DNA from: a virus
Taxonomy: Duplodnaviria; Heunggongvirae; Uroviricota; Caudoviricetes
Virus record (IMG/VR): IMGVR_UViG_3300045963_000153
Span: 64,001 to 85,679 of that record
Strand: one strand, 5' to 3'
DNA: 21,679 nt
This document shows, piece after piece, positions 1,163-20,140 of this stretch. The translations under genes and the position numbers were made by a program. The stretch's first letter is position 1. Each line of letters opens with the position of its first letter. The notes under the pieces are model-generated. The model was not told where the DNA came from, did no database searches, and saw nothing but the letters and a program-made list of their open reading frames with translations.

Positions 1163-4100
1163 ATGGCAAAAACACTTTACGATTACTTTAGTGGTTTACA
1201 AGATTTGGGAATGCCTGACGAAGATATTGTTAGTCATGCTCATGATACATTAAGTAATATTGTTGGAAAACAAGTTCCAACAGAAGATCTTCCTTTATCT
1301 TCTAGTGATTTGTCTGGTGTTTCTTCGCCAGAATTGGATTTAGCAAAAGCATCTGCAAATAGATTAAATAAATACGGTGATAATAAATCATTTAATAATA
1401 TTTTTAATAAAAATGATTATTCTTCTCCTGCAGATATTTATAATAAAATTAAAGAAAATTCTACTTCTAAACTTCCAGAAGAAGTTCTTTCTGATGAAGT
1501 ACAACGTTATGCTGCTGGTAGAAATACAAAAAGTCCAATTATTCCAGCAAAAATGGATGCAAAAGTTAAATCATATATTCCAGAAGAATTAGATGCATTA
1601 AAATCTAAAATTGCAGAACTTGGAAATAAAACAAAAGAAGCTGTAAAACCAATTATTGATACAGCAGCAGAAGATGCTAAATATGCTAATGTTAAAGATA
1701 TTGAAGATCCTTTAACTGCAGCAATGAATAAAATTAAAGGTCTTAGTGGTGATACTTTAGAATCATTTAAATCTGGTCTTGGTAAAGGCGCAAATGCTCT
1801 TGGTGAATATTTACCTTCCGTTGGTAGTGCTTATAGTTATGCTAAAAGTACTCAGGATGCGAATAATCTTTTAAATCCAGAACAAGACGAAACATGGCAA
1901 GAAAAACTTGGACATGGTATGAGAATGGTTGGTCATGCTGGTGAAGCTGCTTCTGTTCCCATTGCTGTTGGAACTGGTGGATTTGGTACTCCTGCGGCTT
2001 TGGTTTCTGGTATTGGTGGTGGCGCATTAGATCTTGGTGGTAGTTTATTAGAATCATATGGAAAAAATCAAAGACCACAACAAATTGATAAAAAAGTTTA
2101 TAATGGTCCAGTTGGTCCTTTTCCAAAAAATCCAAATGATATAGATGTATTGGAAGGTAGATCTTTAGAAGATTTAAAAAAAGAATTGGCTCCTAATCGT
2201 GGTCCTGCTGGTGAATTTGATAAAGAAGATGCAATACCAAAACCATCTCCAGCAGAATTTAAATCCGCTTTAATTGATGCTGCAAAAAAACACGGTAGAG
2301 ATCCTGCTGAAGTTTTATCACACGCATTTGTAGAATCTTCTTTAGATCCAACAGCAGAAAATAATGGTGCATATGGCCCATTTCAAGTTAGAAAAGCGGC
2401 TTTTAGTGATTTACAAAAAGCATATCCAAAGAAATATGGAAACCTATCTGTAGAAGATCTTAGTAAACCAGAAAATATGAAAACTGGAATTGAAGCTGGT
2501 ATGGATTATTTTGATTTATTAAAAAAACAAAATCCAAACCTTCAACATGATGAAATTTTAAGAGCATTTAATCAGGGTGCTCGTGGTAAAGATAAAGATG
2601 ATGCTTTTGATTATTTAGATAAAGTTCAAGGAAATATTCCTAAATTTCAAAAACTTTTAGCAAGTAATCCTAATCGTGGTCCTGCTAGTACAGAAAATCC
2701 AAATCAAATTACGGATGATCAAATTGAAGAACTAAAAAAACAAGGAAAAATTCCTAATATAGAAGAAAATGAATATGCAGATAATGAATCTTCACAAAAT
2801 TCTGAAGAATCTGATGAAGAGGCACAACCAAATAAAGAATTGAGCAAGAATGAAAAAATATTGGCCTTTCTTCGTTCTGGGAATGATGTCAGCAATTTGG
2901 GTGATAAAGCACCATTGCGTTTTGGTCCTTCCGCTAATCCAGTCGAATATGCTAAAAATCAAGATGACATGGGTAAATTGATGGCATTAAAATCTGCATA
3001 TGATAAATCGCAATTACCACAAAAAGAACCAGCTATTCCTGTAGATGCTGAACAAGAAATTCAAAAACAATCTCAACCAGATATTCTTCAAAAATCAATT
3101 GACGGACAAGTACAGCAAGCTAAAAGTAATCGTGAAGATTATTTAAATGCTATGAAAGCTTCAAATAATAATAAATTTATTTCTGGTCTTCTTCGTGGTG
3201 CTCAACAAGCATCTACTGGTTTAGCTGGTATGGGTTCACATGCTGTTGCTAAAAATGAATCAGATAAAGCACTAGCCGATTTACAAGAATCTTCAAATGC
3301 TCCAATTGATCAACTTAAAAACAAAATGGCGTTTGATAAAGAAGATCCGGCTAATCCACAAGCTGAAAATTTAAGACAAATTATTAAAGCTACTTTTGAA
3401 AAAGCAGGTTTAAAATCTCCAGATTTATCTGCACTTGGATATAATGATATTGTTAAAAATAATTCTCTATTTGAAAAAATTGCGGATAGAGAACTTGATC
3501 GACAATATAAAACTAGTTTATTAAGTCAGCAAATGGCTTTAAAACAAAAAGCTGCTCAAGATAAATCTGCAGATAAAGAAGATTATACAAAACAAAACCA
3601 AGTTAAAGATTTAGCTGGATTTGCTAATGGATCTTCTCGTGGTGCTCAAGAAATTAGAACTTTACATCAACAACAAAACCGTATTAATAATTTATATGGT
3701 ACTTTTAATTTACCAGAAGGATTTAATTTAGCAGAAGCAGCTAAAGATCCAAAAGCTATGCAAATATTAAAAGATCAATTAGCAAATAAGAATATGGCTC
3801 AAGTTAATGAAGCTGCAATTCAGATTTCTGGGGTTTTAAATCAAGGAAAACCTTCAGATAAAACAGTTGGCATGTTGGCACAACAAAATTTACAAAGTAC
3901 TTTAGCTAAATATAAAGGTATGTTATTTAGTGATTTACCACCAGCAAATCAACAAGATATTATTTTAAATGTAATCAGAATGGCAAATACTGCAAATAAA
4001 ATTACAGATAATCAATTAAGACAACGTATTGAAGATCAAGCTGGTTCTTTAAATATCGATCCAGAAAAACATCCTAAAGCGTATGCTGATTATCAATCTG

Positions 4101-4249: not shown

Positions 4250-6015
4250 AAGAACTAGAACATTTATCATCTAAAGATTTAGACCGTTTATTAAATTCTG
4301 GAAAAGAAGAAGCTCCAAGTATTGCACCAGTTGTAATACCCGAGCATTCTGAATTACCAACACCAGAACAAAAAGATCCCGGTCTTGTTCATGATCTTTT
4401 ATTAAATGCTGGTCAGGGTGCTACTCTTGGATTTGGTGATGAAATTTTAGGTGGAGTACAGGCTCTTGCTAATACTGCCAGTGGTAAATCTAAATTAGAA
4501 AATTTACTTGATACATATCGTAAATACCAAAAAGAAAATGAGAAGGGTGTTGAAGAATCTTTACAAAGACATCCAGTATTAGGAACTGGAGCACAATTAG
4601 CTGGTGGATTACTTATTCCCGGAGCAGGAACGCTTGGAGCAATTGGTGAAGGTGCTACAGCATTACAAGCAGCAAAAACTGGTGCCAAAGCTGGAGCTGT
4701 AATGGGCGGTCTAGCTGGTATTGGTGGATCTAAAGAAACTCTTGGTAATATTCCCGGTTTATTAGAAGAGGGAGCTAAAGGTGCTGGTATTGGTGCTTTA
4801 ACTGGTGGAGCATTAAGTGGTATTTCTAGAGGTATTGGAAATTATGCAAGCAAAGTTGTTTCTGATAGTCCAGAATTAGAAAGAGATGTTACCGCTTTTA
4901 GAGAAGGATTAGCTGGAAATAAAACTTCAGGAAAAACTGGACCACAAACAATATTAGCTGATATTCGTGATAAAGTTAATAGTGCATCAGAACAAATTTT
5001 AAAACCAGCAAAACAAGCAGCAGAAGAGTATGGTAAAGCTGTTGAATCTGCTACAGGAACATTAACTGGAGATAATCTAGATAATTTTACAAATACTTTA
5101 ATTGATAATATTGATGTATTGCCAACAAAATTTAAACCAAAACAAACTGAAGATGGTGAATTTATTGTTAGGGGATTACCAGAATTAGAAAATATTCTTA
5201 ATGGTAACGGAACTGCTCGTGATTTAAAAACTCTTCAAATTAAATTGAGAGATCAACTTGGTAGCATGGAATATGGTGATGCCAATAAAGGTAAGTTAAA
5301 ACAAATTTTAGAAGAAACTTCTAACGGATTACAATCATTAATTCCACCAGAAAAACTTGCAGAATTAAATCAAAAATATTCTGGAGCATTTTCTATCCCA
5401 GAACAATTGTTAGGTAAAAAATTATCAGGAATTAGTTATAATGATAGAGCACCCGAAGTTCAAGATGCTTTAAATCAACTTGTTGGTAAAGTTGGATATG
5501 GTAACGTTCCAGGTCACGAAGCAAGACAAACACTTAATGATATTATTAAAACTGGTGTAGATTTTGCAAATAAAAATCCAGAATATCAATTTGATTCTAA
5601 AGGTGTAAATGATTTAATTAGTCAAGCTGGTAGAAAAATGGCAGCAATTGGGGCAAGTAGTGGTTTATCAGGTAAACTTGGTGCTGAGACTGGTAAAGTC
5701 AATCCATTTGAAGCAGTAGCAAATCTATCTAGTAATCGTGCTGGTTTTGCAAATACTATAGGTAGAATTGCATCAAGTCCAGTTAGTCCATACGGTATGG
5801 CTACGGCGGCAGAACCGACTTTACTTTCTGCAGCAAATACATTAAAAAATGTTCCGGGATTAAGTAAACTTGGACAAACTTTGGAAGATTCAATTAATAA
5901 CAAGAGCAGCGTTGCTAAAAATGCTGCAATGATGGCAATTATGCAAAATCCTGCAGCAAGAAAAGCTTTGGGAGTAAATATTAAAGAACAAGAACACGAA
6001 GAAGGAACTAAATGA
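4246..6015 (+). CDS. Internal virion / ejection protein, 589 aa
   Basis: ATGA overlap with the previous gene. GQGATLGFGDEI motif, which resembles a motif common in phage ejection proteins, plus long glycine-zipper segments (GAKAGAVMGGLAGIGG, GAGIGALTGGALSG). Confidence 0.7.
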   Translation: MKELEHLSSKDLDRLLNSGKEEAPSIAPVVIPEHSELPTPEQKDPGLVHDLLLNAGQGATLGFGDEILGGVQALANTASGKSKLENLLDTYRKYQKENEKGVEESLQRHPVLGTGAQLAGGLLIPGAGTLGAIGEGATALQAAKTGAKAGAVMGGLAGIGGSKETLGNIPGLLEEGAKGAGIGALTGGALSGISRGIGNYASKVVSDSPELERDVTAFREGLAGNKTSGKTGPQTILADIRDKVNSASEQILKPAKQAAEEYGKAVESATGTLTGDNLDNFTNTLIDNIDVLPTKFKPKQTEDGEFIVRGLPELENILNGNGTARDLKTLQIKLRDQLGSMEYGDANKGKLKQILEETSNGLQSLIPPEKLAELNQKYSGAFSIPEQLLGKKLSGISYNDRAPEVQDALNQLVGKVGYGNVPGHEARQTLNDIIKTGVDFANKNPEYQFDSKGVNDLISQAGRKMAAIGASSGLSGKLGAETGKVNPFEAVANLSSNRAGFANTIGRIASSPVSPYGMATAAEPTLLSAANTLKNVPGLSKLGQTLEDSINNKSSVAKNAAMMAIMQNPAARKALGVNIKEQEHEEGTK

Positions 6016-6286: not shown

Positions 6287-6721
6287 TTATTTTTTGACAA
6301 TATTACCTTTTTTATTAAGATAACCAAGCTGTTTTAAAGTATCTAAATTTTCAAATTTAATAATATTATCATCTTCAATTGTCTTCCCCATTGCATCTTC
6401 TAATGTAGAATCATCGTTCATTGCTTTTTTTCTAGTCAGAATATCTCTATTCCTTGCATTATTTCTATCACCACAATCTTTTTTTAATGCTGGTGTATTA
6501 TGTAAATTGTTACTTAAATCTTCTCGATCTAGTGTATCGTGTACATACTCAGATGTAAATTTATTAAGCCACTCTAATTCTTCATATGTAAGTTTATGGA
6601 GATAATCAAAATCTAATAAATCTGTTCTAGTCTTTAAATTAACTCCCGGATTTAAAGCTGAGAATTTTGTTAATTCTCTCTTATTCGGGGTTTTCTTCTT
6701 TTTTCTTTTTGCTTCGTGCAT
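6287..6721 (-). CDS. Hypothetical phage protein, 144 aa
   Basis: Last gene of the - strand operon. Basic N-terminus and a helical-looking core (DFDYLHKLTYEELEWLNKFTSEYV). No function recognised. Confidence 0.7.
   Translation of the reverse strand: MHEAKRKKKKTPNKRELTKFSALNPGVNLKTRTDLLDFDYLHKLTYEELEWLNKFTSEYVHDTLDREDLSNNLHNTPALKKDCGDRNNARNRDILTRKKAMNDDSTLEDAMGKTIEDDNIIKFENLDTLKQLGYLNKKGNIVKK
6294..6321 (+). promoter_or_regulatory. Possible sigma70-type promoter firing antisense into the - strand operon
   Basis: TTGACA (6294-6299), 16-nt spacer, TAAGAT (6316-6321). Could be chance in AT-rich DNA. Confidence 0.3.
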
Positions 6722-7358
6722 TATTAAATTCCTCGTTGTTTAATAGCATCATGCTACCAACATTATTAAAATACTTCGCAACACTTTCATCTACACAATA
6801 ATATTCTAATTCTTTGTCGTACTTAAATACATTTTTATGATCGATAAATAAAACCATTAATTGATCAAAAATTACATAAGAACAACTAGACTTTGATTTA
6901 GAATAACACCATTTGTCATATAGATTATATAAGTAAACTTTTTTTAAATTGTATTTACCAGACTTAATATTAAAAGCATCCATAAACGCTTTGATATGTT
7001 TTTGATAATGTTTACTTTTTGTTGGATTTTTAGATTTTTTAGTATTATCTGCAATCAATTTAATAATTATTGCTAGATTTTTATTGATATAAAATTTATT
7101 ATATTTACAAGGTAGGAATCTTTTAATCCTTGTAGTAACATTTTTATCGGTAAGTTTTAAACTACTTTTGTTTTTATAAGACCATTTACGAAATAGTTGT
7201 GTTAAAGCACTTGCTGTTATTTCATTATCGCCAGATTCAAGATTAAAATTAACAAGGAATGACATTACAGGATCTTCAACTTCAATAGTTTCAGAAGATA
7301 TGCCACTTATTGCATCTAATAACTCTGCTTCCGAATAAAGTTGCCGTTTATTATTCAT
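6681..7358 (-). CDS. Protein with two tandem repeats resembling the C-terminal winged-helix domain of D5/P4-type primase-helicases, 225 aa
   Basis: Internal duplication in exact register: F34-W59 FLVNFNLESGDNEITASALTQLFRKW and F125-W150 FMDAFNIKSGKYNLKKVYLYNLYDKW. Confidence 0.55.
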   Translation of the reverse strand: MNNKRQLYSEAELLDAISGISSETIEVEDPVMSFLVNFNLESGDNEITASALTQLFRKWSYKNKSSLKLTDKNVTTRIKRFLPCKYNKFYINKNLAIIIKLIADNTKKSKNPTKSKHYQKHIKAFMDAFNIKSGKYNLKKVYLYNLYDKWCYSKSKSSCSYVIFDQLMVLFIDHKNVFKYDKELEYYCVDESVAKYFNNVGSMMLLNNEEFNNARSKKKKEENPE

Positions 7359-13363: not shown

Positions 13364-14307
13364 TTTAATATCCTGTTAATTTGCTCTATCCATTTATTAG
13401 AAATTAATTGATCATTACATAAATAATCTTGATATGCACAAGTAGTAAAAGAATGTTCGTTTGGTGCAAAATTCATATTTGATTGACAATAACGACATTT
13501 AAGAGATTCATCTGGAACTACGGTATAACAACCTTTGCCCAAAATTCCATCTCTGTATGGTAATCTGTGGTACGGATCTACACTAGTAAATCCAACAATA
13601 ATTGGTGCTTTGCCCATTCCAGCTAAATGGATAAGACCATTATCTACACCAAGTACTCCAGTAGAATTATTCATAATAGCATGAGCTTGGAACAAATTTG
13701 TTTTATCAATTAAATTAATTCCATTTGAATAGTCGGCTTTAAAAGTTCCAATGATTGCTTGTTCTTTATATGATGGAGTATATGATTTACCAATATAAAC
13801 AGGCGTATATCCAATACTAACACAATAATCACTAACTTGTTTTACAATTTCTGGTTTAAAAACTCTAGTATCGCTAGTGTATCCTGTTGTAATAACAAAA
13901 TATTTTTCTGGAAGATTAAATTCAGAAACATCGATTGGATCTAATTGAATATAGTTTTTATACTTGTCTTCAACTGATCTACCAACAATTGATAAAAATC
14001 CTTGATCTGTAAGGTGTGATGCTAAATTTGTAATTTTGTGAACATATGGGCTACGAGCTAATAATTCGTCATTGTATTTACCTTCAGAGTTATTTAAACT
14101 TTCAACAGTAATCATATTATAATCTTCAAACACTTTTTTCGCCAAAGGTTTAAAATATTCATGTGTCCAAAGTTTTATTTCAATATGAAAATGATGATCT
14201 AATACAAATTTAACTGCTGGCAATTGTGCAATAGCATCGCCCAATCCACCTTGATGAAGAACAAAGTTAAAAGGCACTACTTCTAGTTTTGTTCCACTGC
14301 GATACAT
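13360..14307 (-). CDS. GT9-family (ADP-heptose-type, GT-B fold) glycosyltransferase with a C-terminal four-Cys motif, 315 aa
   Basis: N-terminal GGLGDAIAQLP, donor-binding TNLFQAHAIMNNSTGVLGVDNGLIHLA, C-terminal CRYC-x15-C-x6-C. SD AGGAG directly after tRNA-Gln. Confidence 0.88.
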   Translation of the reverse strand: MYRSGTKLEVVPFNFVLHQGGLGDAIAQLPAVKFVLDHHFHIEIKLWTHEYFKPLAKKVFEDYNMITVESLNNSEGKYNDELLARSPYVHKITNLASHLTDQGFLSIVGRSVEDKYKNYIQLDPIDVSEFNLPEKYFVITTGYTSDTRVFKPEIVKQVSDYCVSIGYTPVYIGKSYTPSYKEQAIIGTFKADYSNGINLIDKTNLFQAHAIMNNSTGVLGVDNGLIHLAGMGKAPIIVGFTSVDPYHRLPYRDGILGKGCYTVVPDESLKCRYCQSNMNFAPNEHSFTTCAYQDYLCNDQLISNKWIEQINRILK

Positions 14308-14321
14308 AGTTCTCCTGTAAC

Positions 14322-14396
14322 TGGTAGGGGATGATGGACTTGCACCACCGTAGCTGGCATCAAAAACCAGTGTATTAGCTGCTATACGAATCCCCT
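14322..14396 (-). tRNA. tRNA-Gln(TTG), atypical, CCA encoded, 75 nt
   Basis: Hand-folded cloverleaf: acceptor AGGGGAT/ATCCCCT + A + CCA; D arm GTAT/ATAC with loop AGCAGCTA; anticodon arm CTGGT/GCCAG with loop TT-TTG-AT; variable loop CTAC; T arm GGTGG/CCATC with loop TGCAAGT. Confidence 0.88.
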
Positions 14397-14400
14397 AAAA

Positions 14401-14475
14401 TGGCTCTCCCGATTCGGATCGAACGAATGACCTACTGGTTAACAGCCAGTTGCTCTACCTCTGAGCTACAGGAGA
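14401..14475 (-). tRNA. tRNA-Asn(GTT), CCA encoded, 75 nt
   Basis: Canonical cloverleaf: TCTCCTG/CGGGAGA + G + CCA; D arm GCTC/GAGC; anticodon arm ACTGG/CCAGT with loop CT-GTT-AA; T arm ATTCG/CGAAT with loop TTCGATC. Confidence 0.97.
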
Positions 14476-14481
14476 AAACTT

Positions 14482-15171
14482 TTATAATTCTACCAATAAT
14501 TTTTGATTTTTCTTTAAAGCATAATTAGGAAAAATCTCTTTAACTGGAAGAAAAGTTTCAAATCTTTTAGTAATCTTGAAAAGTTTTTCCAAGTACTTAC
14601 TAGGATTATATTGTCCTGAATATCTTTCTGTCAAGCACAAATCTTCATTTGGTAAAATAAAAACATATATTCTATCACCAGACCTATATTCAGATCCTTG
14701 AATAGCATCAATAATCTTTGTTTCATTTGTTCGTTCTGAATTAAAAGTAGTTGGGCTTAACTGGATCTTTTTACTCCACTGTTTAATGTCTTTTATTCCA
14801 TCTCGAACTTCTCTAATGAATTCATTATAAATATTCACCATCTCTGGTATTGGTTCATCTTTATACATTAAAGTATCTACCATTCGATTTAACATAACTT
14901 TTAATGCTGGTTCTAATGAAGCAGATTTAAGACTAGACCCTTTAATTTTAAGTTTACCTTTTTCATCTAACATTGCGTAATTTTTAGCTTTTAAAATCAA
15001 TACTTTAGAAAATACACCATCATTAGCAAATTTAATATGCTCAGGTAATAGACTATTAATTTCATTAATGAGCAATTGTTGTTCTTCTTTATCAAATGGA
15101 GTTTGATCTGGTTTACAGAACATAATGGAATCTGTATCTGCGTTTGTAATTACAAAATTATGTTGATTCAT
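14482..15171 (-). CDS. polB: Family B DNA polymerase, C-terminal subunit (motif C palm and thumb), 229 aa
   Basis: VITNADTDSIMF (motif C), KAKNYA and KGSSLK. Has its own SD (GAGGT) and an in-frame TAA immediately before the ATG. Confidence 0.9.
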   Translation of the reverse strand: MNQHNFVITNADTDSIMFCKPDQTPFDKEEQQLLINEINSLLPEHIKFANDGVFSKVLILKAKNYAMLDEKGKLKIKGSSLKSASLEPALKVMLNRMVDTLMYKDEPIPEMVNIYNEFIREVRDGIKDIKQWSKKIQLSPTTFNSERTNETKIIDAIQGSEYRSGDRIYVFILPNEDLCLTERYSGQYNPSKYLEKLFKITKRFETFLPVKEIFPNYALKKNQKLLVEL

Positions 15172-15448
15172 TTAATACCTCTACCAGACCATCTGGAAAT
15201 TTAATTCTAACATGTTTATATTTATGCGGTCCAGTTTTCTTTTTTGGTTTCCATTTTAAATTTTCTTTTCTCTTTGCTGTATTTTGATTAATTTCCCAAT
15301 CGTGGCTTCCAGCATCGTCAAACCATAAACATTCAGCGCAACGTGGGCATCTATAAGTTACACCAATACCTACCCATCCACTAGCATAACCATAGCCATA
15401 ACCAGTTTCTAATTTTGTTACTTTTACATGACCGCAAGTATCAGACAT
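15158..15448 (-). CDS. Small putative Zn-binding protein between the two polymerase halves, 96 aa
   Basis: ATG at 15448 with SD GAGGA, an 8-nt overlap with the polB-N stop and a 14-nt overlap with the polB-C start. CGH..CPRCAEC and a basic C-terminus. Confidence 0.7.
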   Translation of the reverse strand: MSDTCGHVKVTKLETGYGYGYASGWVGIGVTYRCPRCAECLWFDDAGSHDWEINQNTAKRKENLKWKPKKKTGPHKYKHVRIKFPDGLVEVLNEST

Positions 15449-16970
15449 TGACTTCTTCCTCAAATTCTGTAACTTCCATAAAATCACTTAACTTTTTTTG
15501 TGCTGCCCAATTAATAGTAAATTCAAGAATCTCTCTACCTTTAGCGGTAATAAATTCAGCACAAGGCATACTATTGAATAGCAAGCCAGAAGCCCCCATA
15601 AAGCCATAAAAGCTGTTTAGAATACCTTTAGCTGTTGTATCCATCTCTTTCCAATAGTTATCTCCAGTTTCTGCTGCAAGCTTTTTATACTCTAACCGCT
15701 TCTCTCTAAAAATCTTGACCATTTGAAGTAGATATGCTTTTGGATCTTTGTCGCTATCATATACTTCATATTGAATCATAATAGATGGATATAGTGCTGC
15801 CAAATCGATCTTAAAACAATTTTTATAAAGCCCCGGAACACCAAACGAAATTGCTCCTTGAAACTTCTGTGCTTCATCTGCCTTTGGTAACGAGTGACCA
15901 TCTTGTAAATATGCTCTTACCATCATTCCATTAATTTTACTACCACTTGCGGATAGAAGAATTTCTGTAAATGGTTTTGGCATCATTGGAGCCATATTAA
16001 AATATAGTGGCCCCATATAATCCCAAATTTTTACTGCATCTTCAGCATCTTCAACTGCATATTGTTTAATTTTAGCCCACTCTGTAGGATTTTTATAATG
16101 ATCCCTAATTGATCCGGCATCATAATATTGTCTGCCTTCTTTTTCAAACCCAAGCTGTTTGATCATCGGTTTCAAAGCATAACTTTCAATGCTTTTAGAA
16201 ACATCAAAACTACTTGCTAGAAAAAATGTATCTACAATTTCTCTACCATATATAGTTACACCTTTATATAAAAGTTCTCTGGTTCCATCTAAACGAAATT
16301 TAGAATCATAATTATTAAATTGTATTGTAGAATTATCTCTCCCCATTTTAAGTTCAGTTTCCAATGTATCACATCTGTTTTGCAAATATGGAAAGTCGAA
16401 AGTTAAAATATTATGACCAACAATTAAAGATGGATTACATTTTCTAACGTATTTACAAAAATCAATAATCATATCTTTTTCAGAATTATAATTATCATAT
16501 GCAAATAATTTATTTACTTGTGAGTTTTTATCTCTAAATGTTGTTGAAATTAATAAAATTTTGGCATCTTTATCTAAACCATCTAATCCTGTAGTTTCTA
16601 AATCGAAAGATAATAAACTAATCTCTTTAAATGTTAAATCTCGGAAAAAAGTAATTCCATCTTTTAGCATGAATGCTTCTTCATTATTATAACAAGAATA
16701 GATATCATTATTTCTGTTTATAGCACGAAATCTTTGCCAATCAGCCTTTTCTTTAAATTGATAACCATATTTATAATAAAGATTCCCACTCATACGAGCA
16801 GCATTCTTACTTAATTTATTATGAGATAAAACCCAATACCGATTGTCTCTAATTTCAGAATTGATATTACCATCTATATCTTGTATAAAGATTTCAGCAG
16901 TACCATCTTTAACTTCAAGACCAACAACTCGCCTTAAATTTGATTTACCATAGATAAGTGAATCATTCAT
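15441..16970 (-). CDS. polB: Family B DNA polymerase, N-terminal subunit (3'-5' exonuclease plus motifs A and B), 509 aa
   Basis: ExoI FDLETTG, ExoII GHNILTFDFPYL, ExoIII YAVED, motif A DLAALYPS, motif B KGILNSFYG, ITAKGR; stops before motif C. Start set at ATG 16970 (ATGA overlap). Confidence 0.92.
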   Translation of the reverse strand: MNDSLIYGKSNLRRVVGLEVKDGTAEIFIQDIDGNINSEIRDNRYWVLSHNKLSKNAARMSGNLYYKYGYQFKEKADWQRFRAINRNNDIYSCYNNEEAFMLKDGITFFRDLTFKEISLLSFDLETTGLDGLDKDAKILLISTTFRDKNSQVNKLFAYDNYNSEKDMIIDFCKYVRKCNPSLIVGHNILTFDFPYLQNRCDTLETELKMGRDNSTIQFNNYDSKFRLDGTRELLYKGVTIYGREIVDTFFLASSFDVSKSIESYALKPMIKQLGFEKEGRQYYDAGSIRDHYKNPTEWAKIKQYAVEDAEDAVKIWDYMGPLYFNMAPMMPKPFTEILLSASGSKINGMMVRAYLQDGHSLPKADEAQKFQGAISFGVPGLYKNCFKIDLAALYPSIMIQYEVYDSDKDPKAYLLQMVKIFREKRLEYKKLAAETGDNYWKEMDTTAKGILNSFYGFMGASGLLFNSMPCAEFITAKGREILEFTINWAAQKKLSDFMEVTEFEEEVNV

Positions 16971-17353
16971 GATATTGGCTCCCAACGTAAAATCGTAATT
17001 CTTTTTAATTCTTCGTCTGTAAATACTTCTTCATGATCCATGCAATGGTCTAATGGACCAAATTTTTTAGCACATTCTAAATATGCTTGTCTATAACAAT
17101 AAACTCTCCATTTTCCAATTAATTTACCAAAAACTGGAGTAAGAAAATAATAATCAATAAATCTACACCATTTTGGAAGTCTATAATAATAATGCATAGG
17201 ATAAAATATATCATTTAAAGAAAAATCATAAGTTAAATGAGCATACCACCTAGTATCACCCCATTTTTCTTTAATTTGACCAATAATCATTCCACGTTTA
17301 GCCCATTTATAAAAAATATTTAATGCTGCACCTATATTATGATTAGGTTTCAT
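16967..17353 (-). CDS. Conserved hypothetical phage protein (QIKEKWG..R.Y family), 128 aa
   Basis: QIKEKWGDTRWY resembles the widespread phage QxKEKFGxLRxY motif of unknown function. Start set at ATG 17353, overlapping the upstream stop. Confidence 0.7.
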   Translation of the reverse strand: MKPNHNIGAALNIFYKWAKRGMIIGQIKEKWGDTRWYAHLTYDFSLNDIFYPMHYYYRLPKWCRFIDYYFLTPVFGKLIGKWRVYCYRQAYLECAKKFGPLDHCMDHEEVFTDEELKRITILRWEPIS

Positions 17354-18223: not shown

Positions 18224-20140
18224 CTATCTCCATTGGTTGTCTGTTTGTTCACTATCTCGTTCTTCTCTAATTCCTTGTAATTCTTGTCTATCTTCATCAG
18301 TAAGAGTAGAAAACGTACCAGATAATCCATGCCAACCAAAATCAAGAGAAAATAATTTACCCATACGATTCTTTAAACAAGAAACTGTAGCAAATTTATC
18401 CATTTCTGGATTTCTTGGATTATATCCCGGTCGGTTCATTCCAAGCATAGCACTAACAGATTGAGCAATTGCTCCAGATCCTTTAGCACTATTATAAGAT
18501 TTAACTTCATCACTTGGAGAACCTAATAGCTTATTAGGTTGAAATAAACTGAATACACAAATATCCATACTTTGAGCAATCTCACGCATTTTTTGAGCAA
18601 CATGAGCACTTGATTGAGTAGGATCTGAATAATCAGTAATAACCAATTCGTTATAATCCATAACCATAAATTTTACTTTCTGGCCTGTGGTATCTTCTGC
18701 CTCTTTAATAGTATCAATAATGTCTGGAACATTTTGTCCAGTCTTAAAACAGAAATTAACGTTCTTATATTCTTGGCTAATTTTTTCTTTAACAATATCA
18801 CGGAAGTTTTTTTCATGTTTAAATTTATGAAACATGACTTCGGGTGTAATGTTAAAATGTTTTTGAACTAACTTTTGATAAACAATAGGTGCATACATAT
18901 CATACGAAAAGAATACACTACTATTGTTTTGATTACTCATGTTGTTTAGAATTTGTAATGATAGAGAAGTTTTACCAACTCCGGGACTAGCAACAAGACC
19001 AGAACTCATACCGACAGTTAAACGTAAATTATCATCTAGCTCTGGAATACCAGTTTTAATTGTCAAATTATCAATGTTGGTAGCATAGTTTTCAAAACTA
19101 TCAAATGCTGTGCTAACACTTGTAATATTTGCGTCAGTCAGATTATTCCAACGAATCTTATGCTTTTCACAAAACTTAGCAAGCCAAGGATTATTCTTTG
19201 GAGAATATGATCCACCCTCCCAACGATCAGAGTAAATTGAACCATGAATAATATCTTTCCAAAGTTCTTCTTTATCGAACTCTGAGCTTCCTGTACGCCC
19301 AGCCTGAGCCTTTAAACTCTTTTTACATAGGTAATATGTGGCTTCCTTATCAAACCCCATGCTACGGCATTTTGCGGCTAATACCATTAGAGCATTATGA
19401 CGTTCGCCACTTTCATAATGACCTTCAAGAATTGCATAAACATAATCTTGCCATCCTTTAGGTTTCTTTGAAAAATCTAAAGCTGGAGAAATAATTGAAG
19501 ATGCTTCTTTCTTTTTTTCTACAGTAAATAGTGTTTCGGGTAATTTATTAGCAGTGACATCAAAATTATTGTTAACTTTAGTTTTTGCTAAAGCTTTAAT
19601 TTGATCTACAGTCATTTCGTCAATTTCAGCAATATGAAGTGGAATTTTGTATAAACCAGATTTTGGATTTAAAGAATTATCAATTCGTACAATTCTAGCT
19701 GGATCTGAAACGCTTGGATCATAAGTATTTAATCCTTGTGCAATAAGCCCCGTTGCTTTTTTAAATTGTTCTGGATTGATCTTTTTGTTTAATTTGATCG
19801 AAGCGTGGAATCCTTTATTACCAGAGAAAGCACAAATAATATTATCTGGTTCAATTCCATATCCATCAATAAGTCTAGTGCAAAGTTCAATGGTATCTTT
19901 TTTTGCAGCTTCAATATTATCTTTTGAATCAAAATCCCAAACTAATGTATCTGTAAGAACATCAGTAATCCCTGCAATAGATCCGGTTGATTCGACCTTT
20001 TTCTTTTGTTCTTCTGTGTAAGCAAAAATTGATTGGTATGCTTCTTTACCGTCGTTGAGTTTGTTAATTTCTTCTTGAGTTAAAAGTTTTGGCTTATCGT
20101 TTACTTTATTCTTAAAGTTGTAATACATGTTGTTATTCAT
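18224..20140 (-). CDS. Fused AEP primase(-polymerase), PriCT and SF4 (DnaB-like) helicase, 638 aa
   Basis: AEP motifs WDFD, FSGNKGFH and YDPSV; PriCT-like GERHNALMVLA; Walker A ASPGVGKTS, Walker B MDY, H3 FQPNK, H4 KGSGAIAQ and arginine finger KNRMG. Confidence 0.92.
   Translation of the reverse strand: MNNNMYYNFKNKVNDKPKLLTQEEINKLNDGKEAYQSIFAYTEEQKKKVESTGSIAGITDVLTDTLVWDFDSKDNIEAAKKDTIELCTRLIDGYGIEPDNIICAFSGNKGFHASIKLNKKINPEQFKKATGLIAQGLNTYDPSVSDPARIVRIDNSLNPKSGLYKIPLHIAEIDEMTVDQIKALAKTKVNNNFDVTANKLPETLFTVEKKKEASSIISPALDFSKKPKGWQDYVYAILEGHYESGERHNALMVLAAKCRSMGFDKEATYYLCKKSLKAQAGRTGSSEFDKEELWKDIIHGSIYSDRWEGGSYSPKNNPWLAKFCEKHKIRWNNLTDANITSVSTAFDSFENYATNIDNLTIKTGIPELDDNLRLTVGMSSGLVASPGVGKTSLSLQILNNMSNQNNSSVFFSYDMYAPIVYQKLVQKHFNITPEVMFHKFKHEKNFRDIVKEKISQEYKNVNFCFKTGQNVPDIIDTIKEAEDTTGQKVKFMVMDYNELVITDYSDPTQSSAHVAQKMREIAQSMDICVFSLFQPNKLLGSPSDEVKSYNSAKGSGAIAQSVSAMLGMNRPGYNPRNPEMDKFATVSCLKNRMGKLFSLDFGWHGLSGTFSTLTDEDRQELQGIREERDSEQTDNQWR

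Follow-up and report, generated by a model that had tools for sequence, protein, structure and literature searches.

The stretch analysed here (the window) is the last 21.7 kb (21,679 nucleotides, nt; positions 64,001 to 85,679) of the 85,679-bp IMG/VR record IMGVR_UViG_3300045963_000153, which is rated complete by CheckV. It comes from an uncultured wetland phage with a genome of ca. 86 kb, whose sole DNA polymerase is encoded by two neighbouring genes, called here polB-N and polB-C; neither a second family B polymerase (PolB) nor any PolA was found in the genome. The window features described below lie on the minus strand, where polB-N (15441..16970; 509 amino acids, aa, from its ATG) is followed by a middle gene of 96 aa, also counted from an ATG (15158..15448), and this by polB-C (14482..15171; 229 aa), the three being in three different frames. 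The N-terminal domain, the 3'-5' exonuclease, the first part of the palm and the fingers are found in polB-N, and the second part of the palm (motif C and KxY) and the thumb in polB-C.

The two halves of the polymerase

Both halves score above the curated Pfam cut-offs. In polB-N we found PF03104 (1.6e-16, 60.9 bits) and, over profile positions 116-208 of 453, PF00136 (2.1e-13, 50.3 bits), while positions 221-420 of the same 453 are matched by polB-C (33.5 bits); the cut-off is 23 bits in all three cases, and the two tracts of the profile abut. Taken together, the pair has what characterizes a family B DNA polymerase, that is, both Pfam profiles and all seven motifs with their catalytic residues. 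The initial annotation of this stretch had assigned ExoI to ExoIII and motifs A and B to the longer open reading frame (ORF) and motif C to the shorter one, and every one of them could be located. On polB-N lie ExoI (16593..16607, residues 122-126), ExoII (16383..16415, residues 186-196), ExoIII (16044..16061, residues 304-309), motif A (15783..15806, residues 389-396) and motif B (15603..15629, residues 448-456), in which D123 and E125, D192, Y304 and D308, D389, Y394 and P395, and K448, N452, S453 and G456, respectively, are invariant in 66 split N halves. The protein encoded by polB-C begins 11 residues ahead of the DTDS of motif C (15127..15138, residues 12-15) and continues with the KxY primer-terminus region (14974..14991, residues 61-66, KxY itself being 63-65); D12, T13 and D14 of the former and K63, N64 and Y65 of the latter are invariant in 61 split C halves.

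The break falls in the stretch that links the helix following motif B to the strand of motif C. Residue 6 of polB-C aligns with residue 535 of Pfu Pol, so that the break corresponds to approximately Pfu 530. After GREIL...WAAQK, polB-N has a C-terminal tail of 17 residues (15444..15494), consisting of a hydrophobic xDF(M/I/W) motif and then an acidic run, which is absent from compact contiguous PolBs. With this tail set aside, the joined halves have about 24 residues from GR to DTD vs. 22 in contiguous relatives, so nothing is missing at the break, as the initial annotation had already held on the grounds of a normal GR-to-DTDS spacing.

The three genes are tightly packed. The ATG of polB-N overlaps the TGA of the upstream gene, its own TGA is overlapped by the ATG of the middle gene (ATGTCTGA), and the final 14 nt of the middle gene overlap the start of polB-C, with 269 nt between the polB-N stop (15441) and the polB-C ATG (15171). 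Each downstream gene has its own Shine-Dalgarno (SD) site: GAGGA (15457..15461), 8 nt before the ATG at 15448, lies within the polB-N tail, whose Glu codons also contain it, and GAGG (15178..15181), 6 nt before the ATG at 15171, lies within the 3' end of the middle gene. An in-frame TAA (15172..15174) immediately precedes the polB-C ATG. The separate frames, the SD sites and this stop codon had been pointed out before and are confirmed on the sequence. No terminator-like site was found on the minus strand between the PolB genes. Judging by the overlaps, the SD sites and this lack of a terminator-like site, the three genes look like one operon, and the placing of SD and ATG in or near the end of the preceding gene suggests coupled translation.

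When the two chains were modelled together, the predicted complex had a score of 0.72, vs. 0.16 for the best of three controls; 58 of 80 solved complexes attained that mark, as did 2 of 110 mismatched pairs. Agreement between the model runs is at least 94% of contacts, and the partner predicted local distance difference test (pLDDT) values are 85 or more. In the model, residues 373-400 of polB-N, which include the motif A strand, contact residues 1-20 (the motif C hairpin) and 41-63 of polB-C.

The break site and its gap in related phages

Searching with polB-C we found at least 242 free-standing C halves of similar size. All 118 short C halves among the matches listed (at least 118 distinct ones) start 5-20 residues before DTDS, a coincidence of position that is far beyond chance. 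In the polB-N search (ca. 90 clusters) every relative at 54% identity or more was 504-542 aa long, except two shorter ones that are presumably partial. Both halves are intact, with invariant catalytic residues, in relatives down to ca. 45% identity. The corresponding loci (designated by L numbers where they have to be told apart) were obtained from IMG/VR with the C half and then with alignment A2, a search with the N half alone having returned no loci; with A2 we fetched 77 related loci and classified 75 of them by the state of the break site. At the DNA level, the only matches in cultured phages were to the neighbouring tRNAs.

These 75 loci comprise 22 compact ones (22 residues from GR to DTD), 21 contiguous ones with an in-frame insert of ca. 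30-85 extra residues exactly at the break site (including L015, L016, L018, L038, L051, L054, L059-L061, L070, L072-L074, L076, L079, L080 and L083-L086) and 32 classed as split. The survey of homologues suggested by the initial annotation found the break conserved in a large clade, alongside compact and looped forms. One of the 32, L044, has its break in the motif B region and an out-of-frame tail, probably a frameshift, and does not count as this split. The distance between the halves is also variable. They are 35 nt apart in the closest relative, L004 (72-75% identity), with an empty spacer and an own start for the C half, they overlap by 8 nt in L009, and they are ca. 4.8 kb and ten genes apart in L010. 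The tails of the split N halves (ca. 100 examined) open with the same motif as the inserts, xD(Y/F)(W/I/M) after WASGK, followed in split forms by an acidic run. The insert could be either a permissive loop where fission occurs or the scar of a re-fusion; the break site itself is a surface-tolerant, hypervariable spot.

In a concatenated tree of 79 loci the split or whole label has to change 16 times, well-supported branches forcing 12 of these changes, and close pairs differ in state (L020/L039, L025/L028, and L013 plus L008 vs. a loop clade). In a smaller independent set, which gave the same pattern, the placing of all split forms in one clade is rejected by the approximately unbiased (AU) test (p=0.005). 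The window is found within an all-split clade of 71 rows in the C-domain tree (support 96), and the smallest well-supported group containing it in the concatenated trees is also all split.

What lies in the gap varies from one locus to another. A GIY-YIG homing endonuclease gene, always of one family, occupies it in 11 loci (L006, L007, L008 and eight IMG/VR loci). The proteins of L006, L007 and L008 share 40-50% mutual identity, each of these genes ends 8 nt within polB-C, and some of the gap GIY-YIG genes carry NUMOD. A second nuclease family, HNH/endonuclease VII-like by PHROGs, was found in four further loci. Other gaps contain a Phage_ABA_S gene (L089), a DUF6939 gene (L037) or three small ORFs (L005), and 13 gaps are of 126 nt or less. 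The window has no homing endonuclease gene in its gap, the gene there being without a match to nuclease families. The gap ORF of L025 was compared with the nuclease gene of L028, a close relative, as a possible decayed copy of it, with no signal.

The protein encoded by the middle gene of the window has a CxH...CxxC pattern, a GYGYG..SGW core and a basic stretch, and is predicted to be a small Zn-binding protein. It belongs to a family with 21 representatives, mostly of 68-98 aa, and matched no Pfam, PHROG or NCBIfam family and no PDB fold; its AlphaFold2 (AF2) pLDDT is 82. As a remnant of a GIY-YIG gene it could not be detected (relaxed hidden Markov model, E=2.6). In the two nearest relatives examined it lies outside the gap: in L004, where the region is otherwise collinear, a homologue with 64% identity is found two genes upstream of polB-N, and in L089 one with 55% identity lies directly upstream of polB-N. 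These positions indicate that the middle gene would not be part of the design of the split, a point on which the initial annotation is to be corrected, and in our reading it is a passenger that has come to lie in the gap by moving there.

Some further observations concern this family of loci and the surroundings of the genes. The Phage_ABA_S gene (PF18066) is another small gene that has moved into or out of the gap, since it lies between the PolB halves at 5827-6222 of L089 and just downstream of polB-C at 6029-6415 of L005. In L003 at least six small ORFs, one of them within the polB gap, share a C-terminal motif F-N/D-x-K-M-D/E-x-L/F-L (those with the shared tail include 1539-2164, 3628-3843, 4860-5135, 5334-5609 and 6568-7056), which looks like a paralogous family with a common tail. 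The core of the middle protein (ca. residues 17-56) is repeated 4-7 times in five large proteins of 459-1307 aa (P0371, P0375, P0376, P0380 and P0381). Fusions to a uracil-DNA glycosylase domain (PF03167) also occur, C-terminal to the PolB C half in three proteins of ca. 435 aa (P0132, P0138, P0139) and to the whole PolB in two of ca. 925 aa (P0160, P0167); the distant C half of L010 (5001-6317), ca. 4.8 kb and ten genes from its N half, is fused to PF03167 as well. Within the 3' end of polB-C, on the minus strand at 14605-14634, the window has a perfect sigma-70 consensus (TTGACA, 18 nt, TATAAT; 12 of 12 positions), which may be the promoter of the tRNA-Asn and tRNA-Gln pair (14322-14475) ca. 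130 nt downstream. Upstream of polB-N, by four to five small genes in all relatives examined, is the gene (18224-20140, minus strand) for a 638-aa protein with a DnaB_C helicase domain at residues 361-610. Its long N-terminal region is probably a primase, going by a faint PF01896 match in the L006 homologue only.

A probable two-chain enzyme and the alternatives

We consider it very probable that the sole DNA polymerase of this phage is a two-subunit family B enzyme made of separately translated chains, and that the gene became split through homing-endonuclease traffic. The 509-aa chain would supply the exonuclease, motif A and motif B, and the 229-aa chain the motif C hairpin, KxY and the thumb. 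The two would associate non-covalently, completing the palm beta-sheet across the chain boundary, as the model suggests. A heterodimeric replicase with active-site aspartates coming from two polypeptides is what the initial annotation had put forward, and the clade-wide split, the invariant residues, the status of sole polymerase and the passing of the two-chain model, which it had also proposed, all argue for it. What it had overlooked is the driver, namely the homing endonuclease genes found in the gap of many relatives. In this phage family the break site would be a landing site for free-standing GIY-YIG and HNH homing endonuclease genes, and the range of forms observed, from compact and loop-bearing to split with or without a nuclease gene, would result from their insertion, decay and replacement. 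In the lineage of the window the nuclease gene would have been lost, and the gap would now be filled by a small gene unrelated to it, Zn-finger-like and belonging to the same replication module.

Several other explanations have to be weighed against this one. The window derives from a metagenome assembly, and the split might be an artefact, either a chimera or an indel. However, Logan contigs from three wetland-metagenome runs span 14300-17100 with zero differences, the same architecture is present in more than 100 distinct clusters from many samples, and an indel cannot yield a conserved 291-nt gene with two SD/ATG starts. The homologue clusters and the contigs of the three runs refute this explanation for practical purposes, leaving it a negligible probability, and the assembly chimera named as a danger in the initial annotation is not borne out. 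It is also conceivable that a single polypeptide or mRNA is restored from the halves, whether through a split intein, a group I intron, a double frameshift or translational bypass. A group I intron is known within 43B of phage 25 (PMC2993671), and a frameshift might at least be imagined in those relatives whose halves overlap by 4-20 nt. On the other hand, Rfam gave no intron match at the gathering score or at E<=1 (at E<=1 only the neighbouring tRNA and one weak match to a microRNA model appeared), no bypass signal was found, and no Hint or intein domain was matched by Pfam in either half, the 17-aa N tail and the 11 aa before DTDS being too short for intein halves. Furthermore, the middle ORF is a conserved protein gene with homologues at other positions, polB-C has its own SD preceded in frame by the TAA, and 4.8 kb separate the halves of L010. 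The own starts, the conserved halves, the variable spacing in L004, L009 and L010, and the lack of intron and intein matches indicate that the halves are separate genes, and rejoining is very unlikely.

A third alternative would be that the split gene is a decaying pseudogene and another polymerase replicates the phage. Defective genomes may occur among metagenomic contigs, and the activity of the halves is a prediction from sequence and model. Yet both are intact, with catalytic residues that stay invariant in relatives as distant as ca. 45% identity, the genome offers no alternative PolB or PolA, and it codes for a DnaB-type helicase of its own, with a primase-like region fused to it at the N terminus, all of which makes decay extremely unlikely. 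As for the middle protein, it could be a functional third component of the split polymerase (a clasp, a chaperone or a regulator), given that its gene appears translationally coupled between the halves, that its family tends to adjoin polB-N in relatives and that the predictions give a folded, Zn-binding protein containing a basic stretch. However, most split relatives do not have it in the gap, which is empty or contains endonuclease or unrelated genes, a family member is found at L091 in a 4.3 kb locus with no polB in view, and it matched no known family or fold. We consider such a role unlikely.

Some points weigh against a two-chain enzyme of endonuclease origin and should be kept in mind. 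In this phage the enzyme is a prediction from sequence and model, none of the sequencing runs listed as containing the stretch is of RNA, and the model would be expected to pass for the halves of a fold solved in one piece, since structures of contiguous PolBs are already available and the prediction may only recall that fold. The three Logan runs may be the source samples and hence partly dependent on the assembly. Some overlapping "split" calls may be frameshift errors, certainly L044 and possibly L020, L023 and L029. The window is devoid of an endonuclease gene, and the endonuclease origin of its split is derived from its relatives. Finally, the trees are unrooted and fix neither fission vs. 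re-fusion nor whether the loop came before or after the split.

A bolder version, which we put forward tentatively and regard as somewhat doubtful, is that the spot before motif C is a dedicated endonuclease landing pad where the split state itself spreads between phages. Along with the nuclease gene, the recipient would acquire the stop codon, the acidic tail containing the SD site and the new ATG, there would have been at least a dozen independent switches among four allele states within one phage family, and the shared xD(Y/F)W motif of tails and loops would be an element-derived clasp holding the two chains.

If the sole polymerase is indeed a two-subunit enzyme, a PolB serving in replication can withstand being cut between motifs B and C, a site other than the finger tip where the T4-like splits lie. 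The cut recurs as a population-wide polymorphism in a large, uncultured family of freshwater and wetland phages. Where PolB serves as a marker, surveys will meet two pieces per genome, and many C halves are left unnamed or as "hypothetical protein" by annotation pipelines. The series of compact, looped, split and split-plus-nuclease forms provides a natural data set on how endonucleases fracture essential genes and how the pieces hold together.

Comparison with known split polymerases and fractured genes

The closest precedent is the split gene 43 (gp43A/gp43B), described for the T4-related Aeromonas phages 44RR2.8t, 25, 31 and 65 and the Acinetobacter phage 133 (Petrov et al., 2006, 2010, cited in PMC2988022, PMC2677866 and PMC3061061). 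The two products of phage 25 co-purify and are active (PMC2988022), and a GIY-YIG gene is present in the gap of its gene 43 (PMC2988022, PMC2677866). As in the window, a phage replicative PolB is divided over two neighbouring cistrons that start independently, and the catalytic aspartates are on different chains. The T4-like gap ranges from a few bases to kilobases and contains the GIY-YIG gene in some members and not in others, which is also the situation in the family of the window. The break, however, is not the same. In T4-like gp43A/43B it is at the finger tip (PMC3061061), and in the 44RR2.8t record 43A ends before motif B, which is carried by 43B, so that the T4-like break lies in the fingers, between motifs A and B. 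In the window motifs A and B remain together and the palm is cut 11 residues before DTDS. The parallel with gp43 drawn by the initial annotation is thus valid for a PolB in two genes and fails for the place of the break. The phage lineage is also different, the best PolB matches in cultured phages being to Salinibacter phage and cyanophage PolBs at 23-27% identity, and no Aeromonas or T4-like phage is among the genera named for these matches (all but one). Moreover, the site is far more polymorphic in the window family than in the T4-like phages, with four states and many switches.

In archaea, PolB3 of Methanothermobacter thermautotrophicus and other Methanobacteriales is reported to be encoded by two genes with both chains needed (Kelman et al., 1999, cited in PMC3061061 and PMC4104785); the genes are given as ca. 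85 kb apart in Methanothermobacter, and faulty intein excision has been proposed as their origin (PMC4104785). This enzyme resembles that of the window in having the break in the palm near motif C and a small subunit of similar size. Its break is placed ca. 83 aa after Pfu 467/468, i.e., at about Pfu 550 (PMC3061061), ca. 20 residues from the ca. Pfu 530 of the window, a difference obtained from the published offset. Unlike the archaeal genes, those of the window and of L004 are close together, the halves being 269 nt and 35 nt apart, respectively.

The split PolB of PhiKZ and the chimalliviruses (gp82 and gp50) forms a stable 1:1 complex by cryo-electron microscopy (cryoEM; PMC13648687, a 2026 preprint). 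There too two chains carry the motif A and motif C aspartates separately, and the split lies inside a large palm-domain insertion (PMC13648687). In PhiKZ, though, it precedes the fingers, motifs B and C being both on the C chain, and the genes are non-adjacent and a clamp-derived subunit is added, unlike in the window.

Beyond polymerases, the window family resembles the fractured nrdA/mobE of phage Aeh1, in which an active enzyme is put together again from the parts (Dassa et al., 2009, PMC2677866; PMC3045599). In both an essential gene of nucleotide metabolism or replication has been cut in two, with an endonuclease gene between the parts. By analogy with Aeh1 NrdA the tail of the N half may be an interaction module. 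In contrast to the fractured genes with split inteins (Dassa et al., 2009), there are no intein parts at the broken ends in the window. The notion of two chains contributing to one active site therefore has precedents, in T4-like phages, Methanothermobacter and PhiKZ. The novelty lies in where the break falls, in the phage lineage, and in how widespread and recurrent the polymorphism is.

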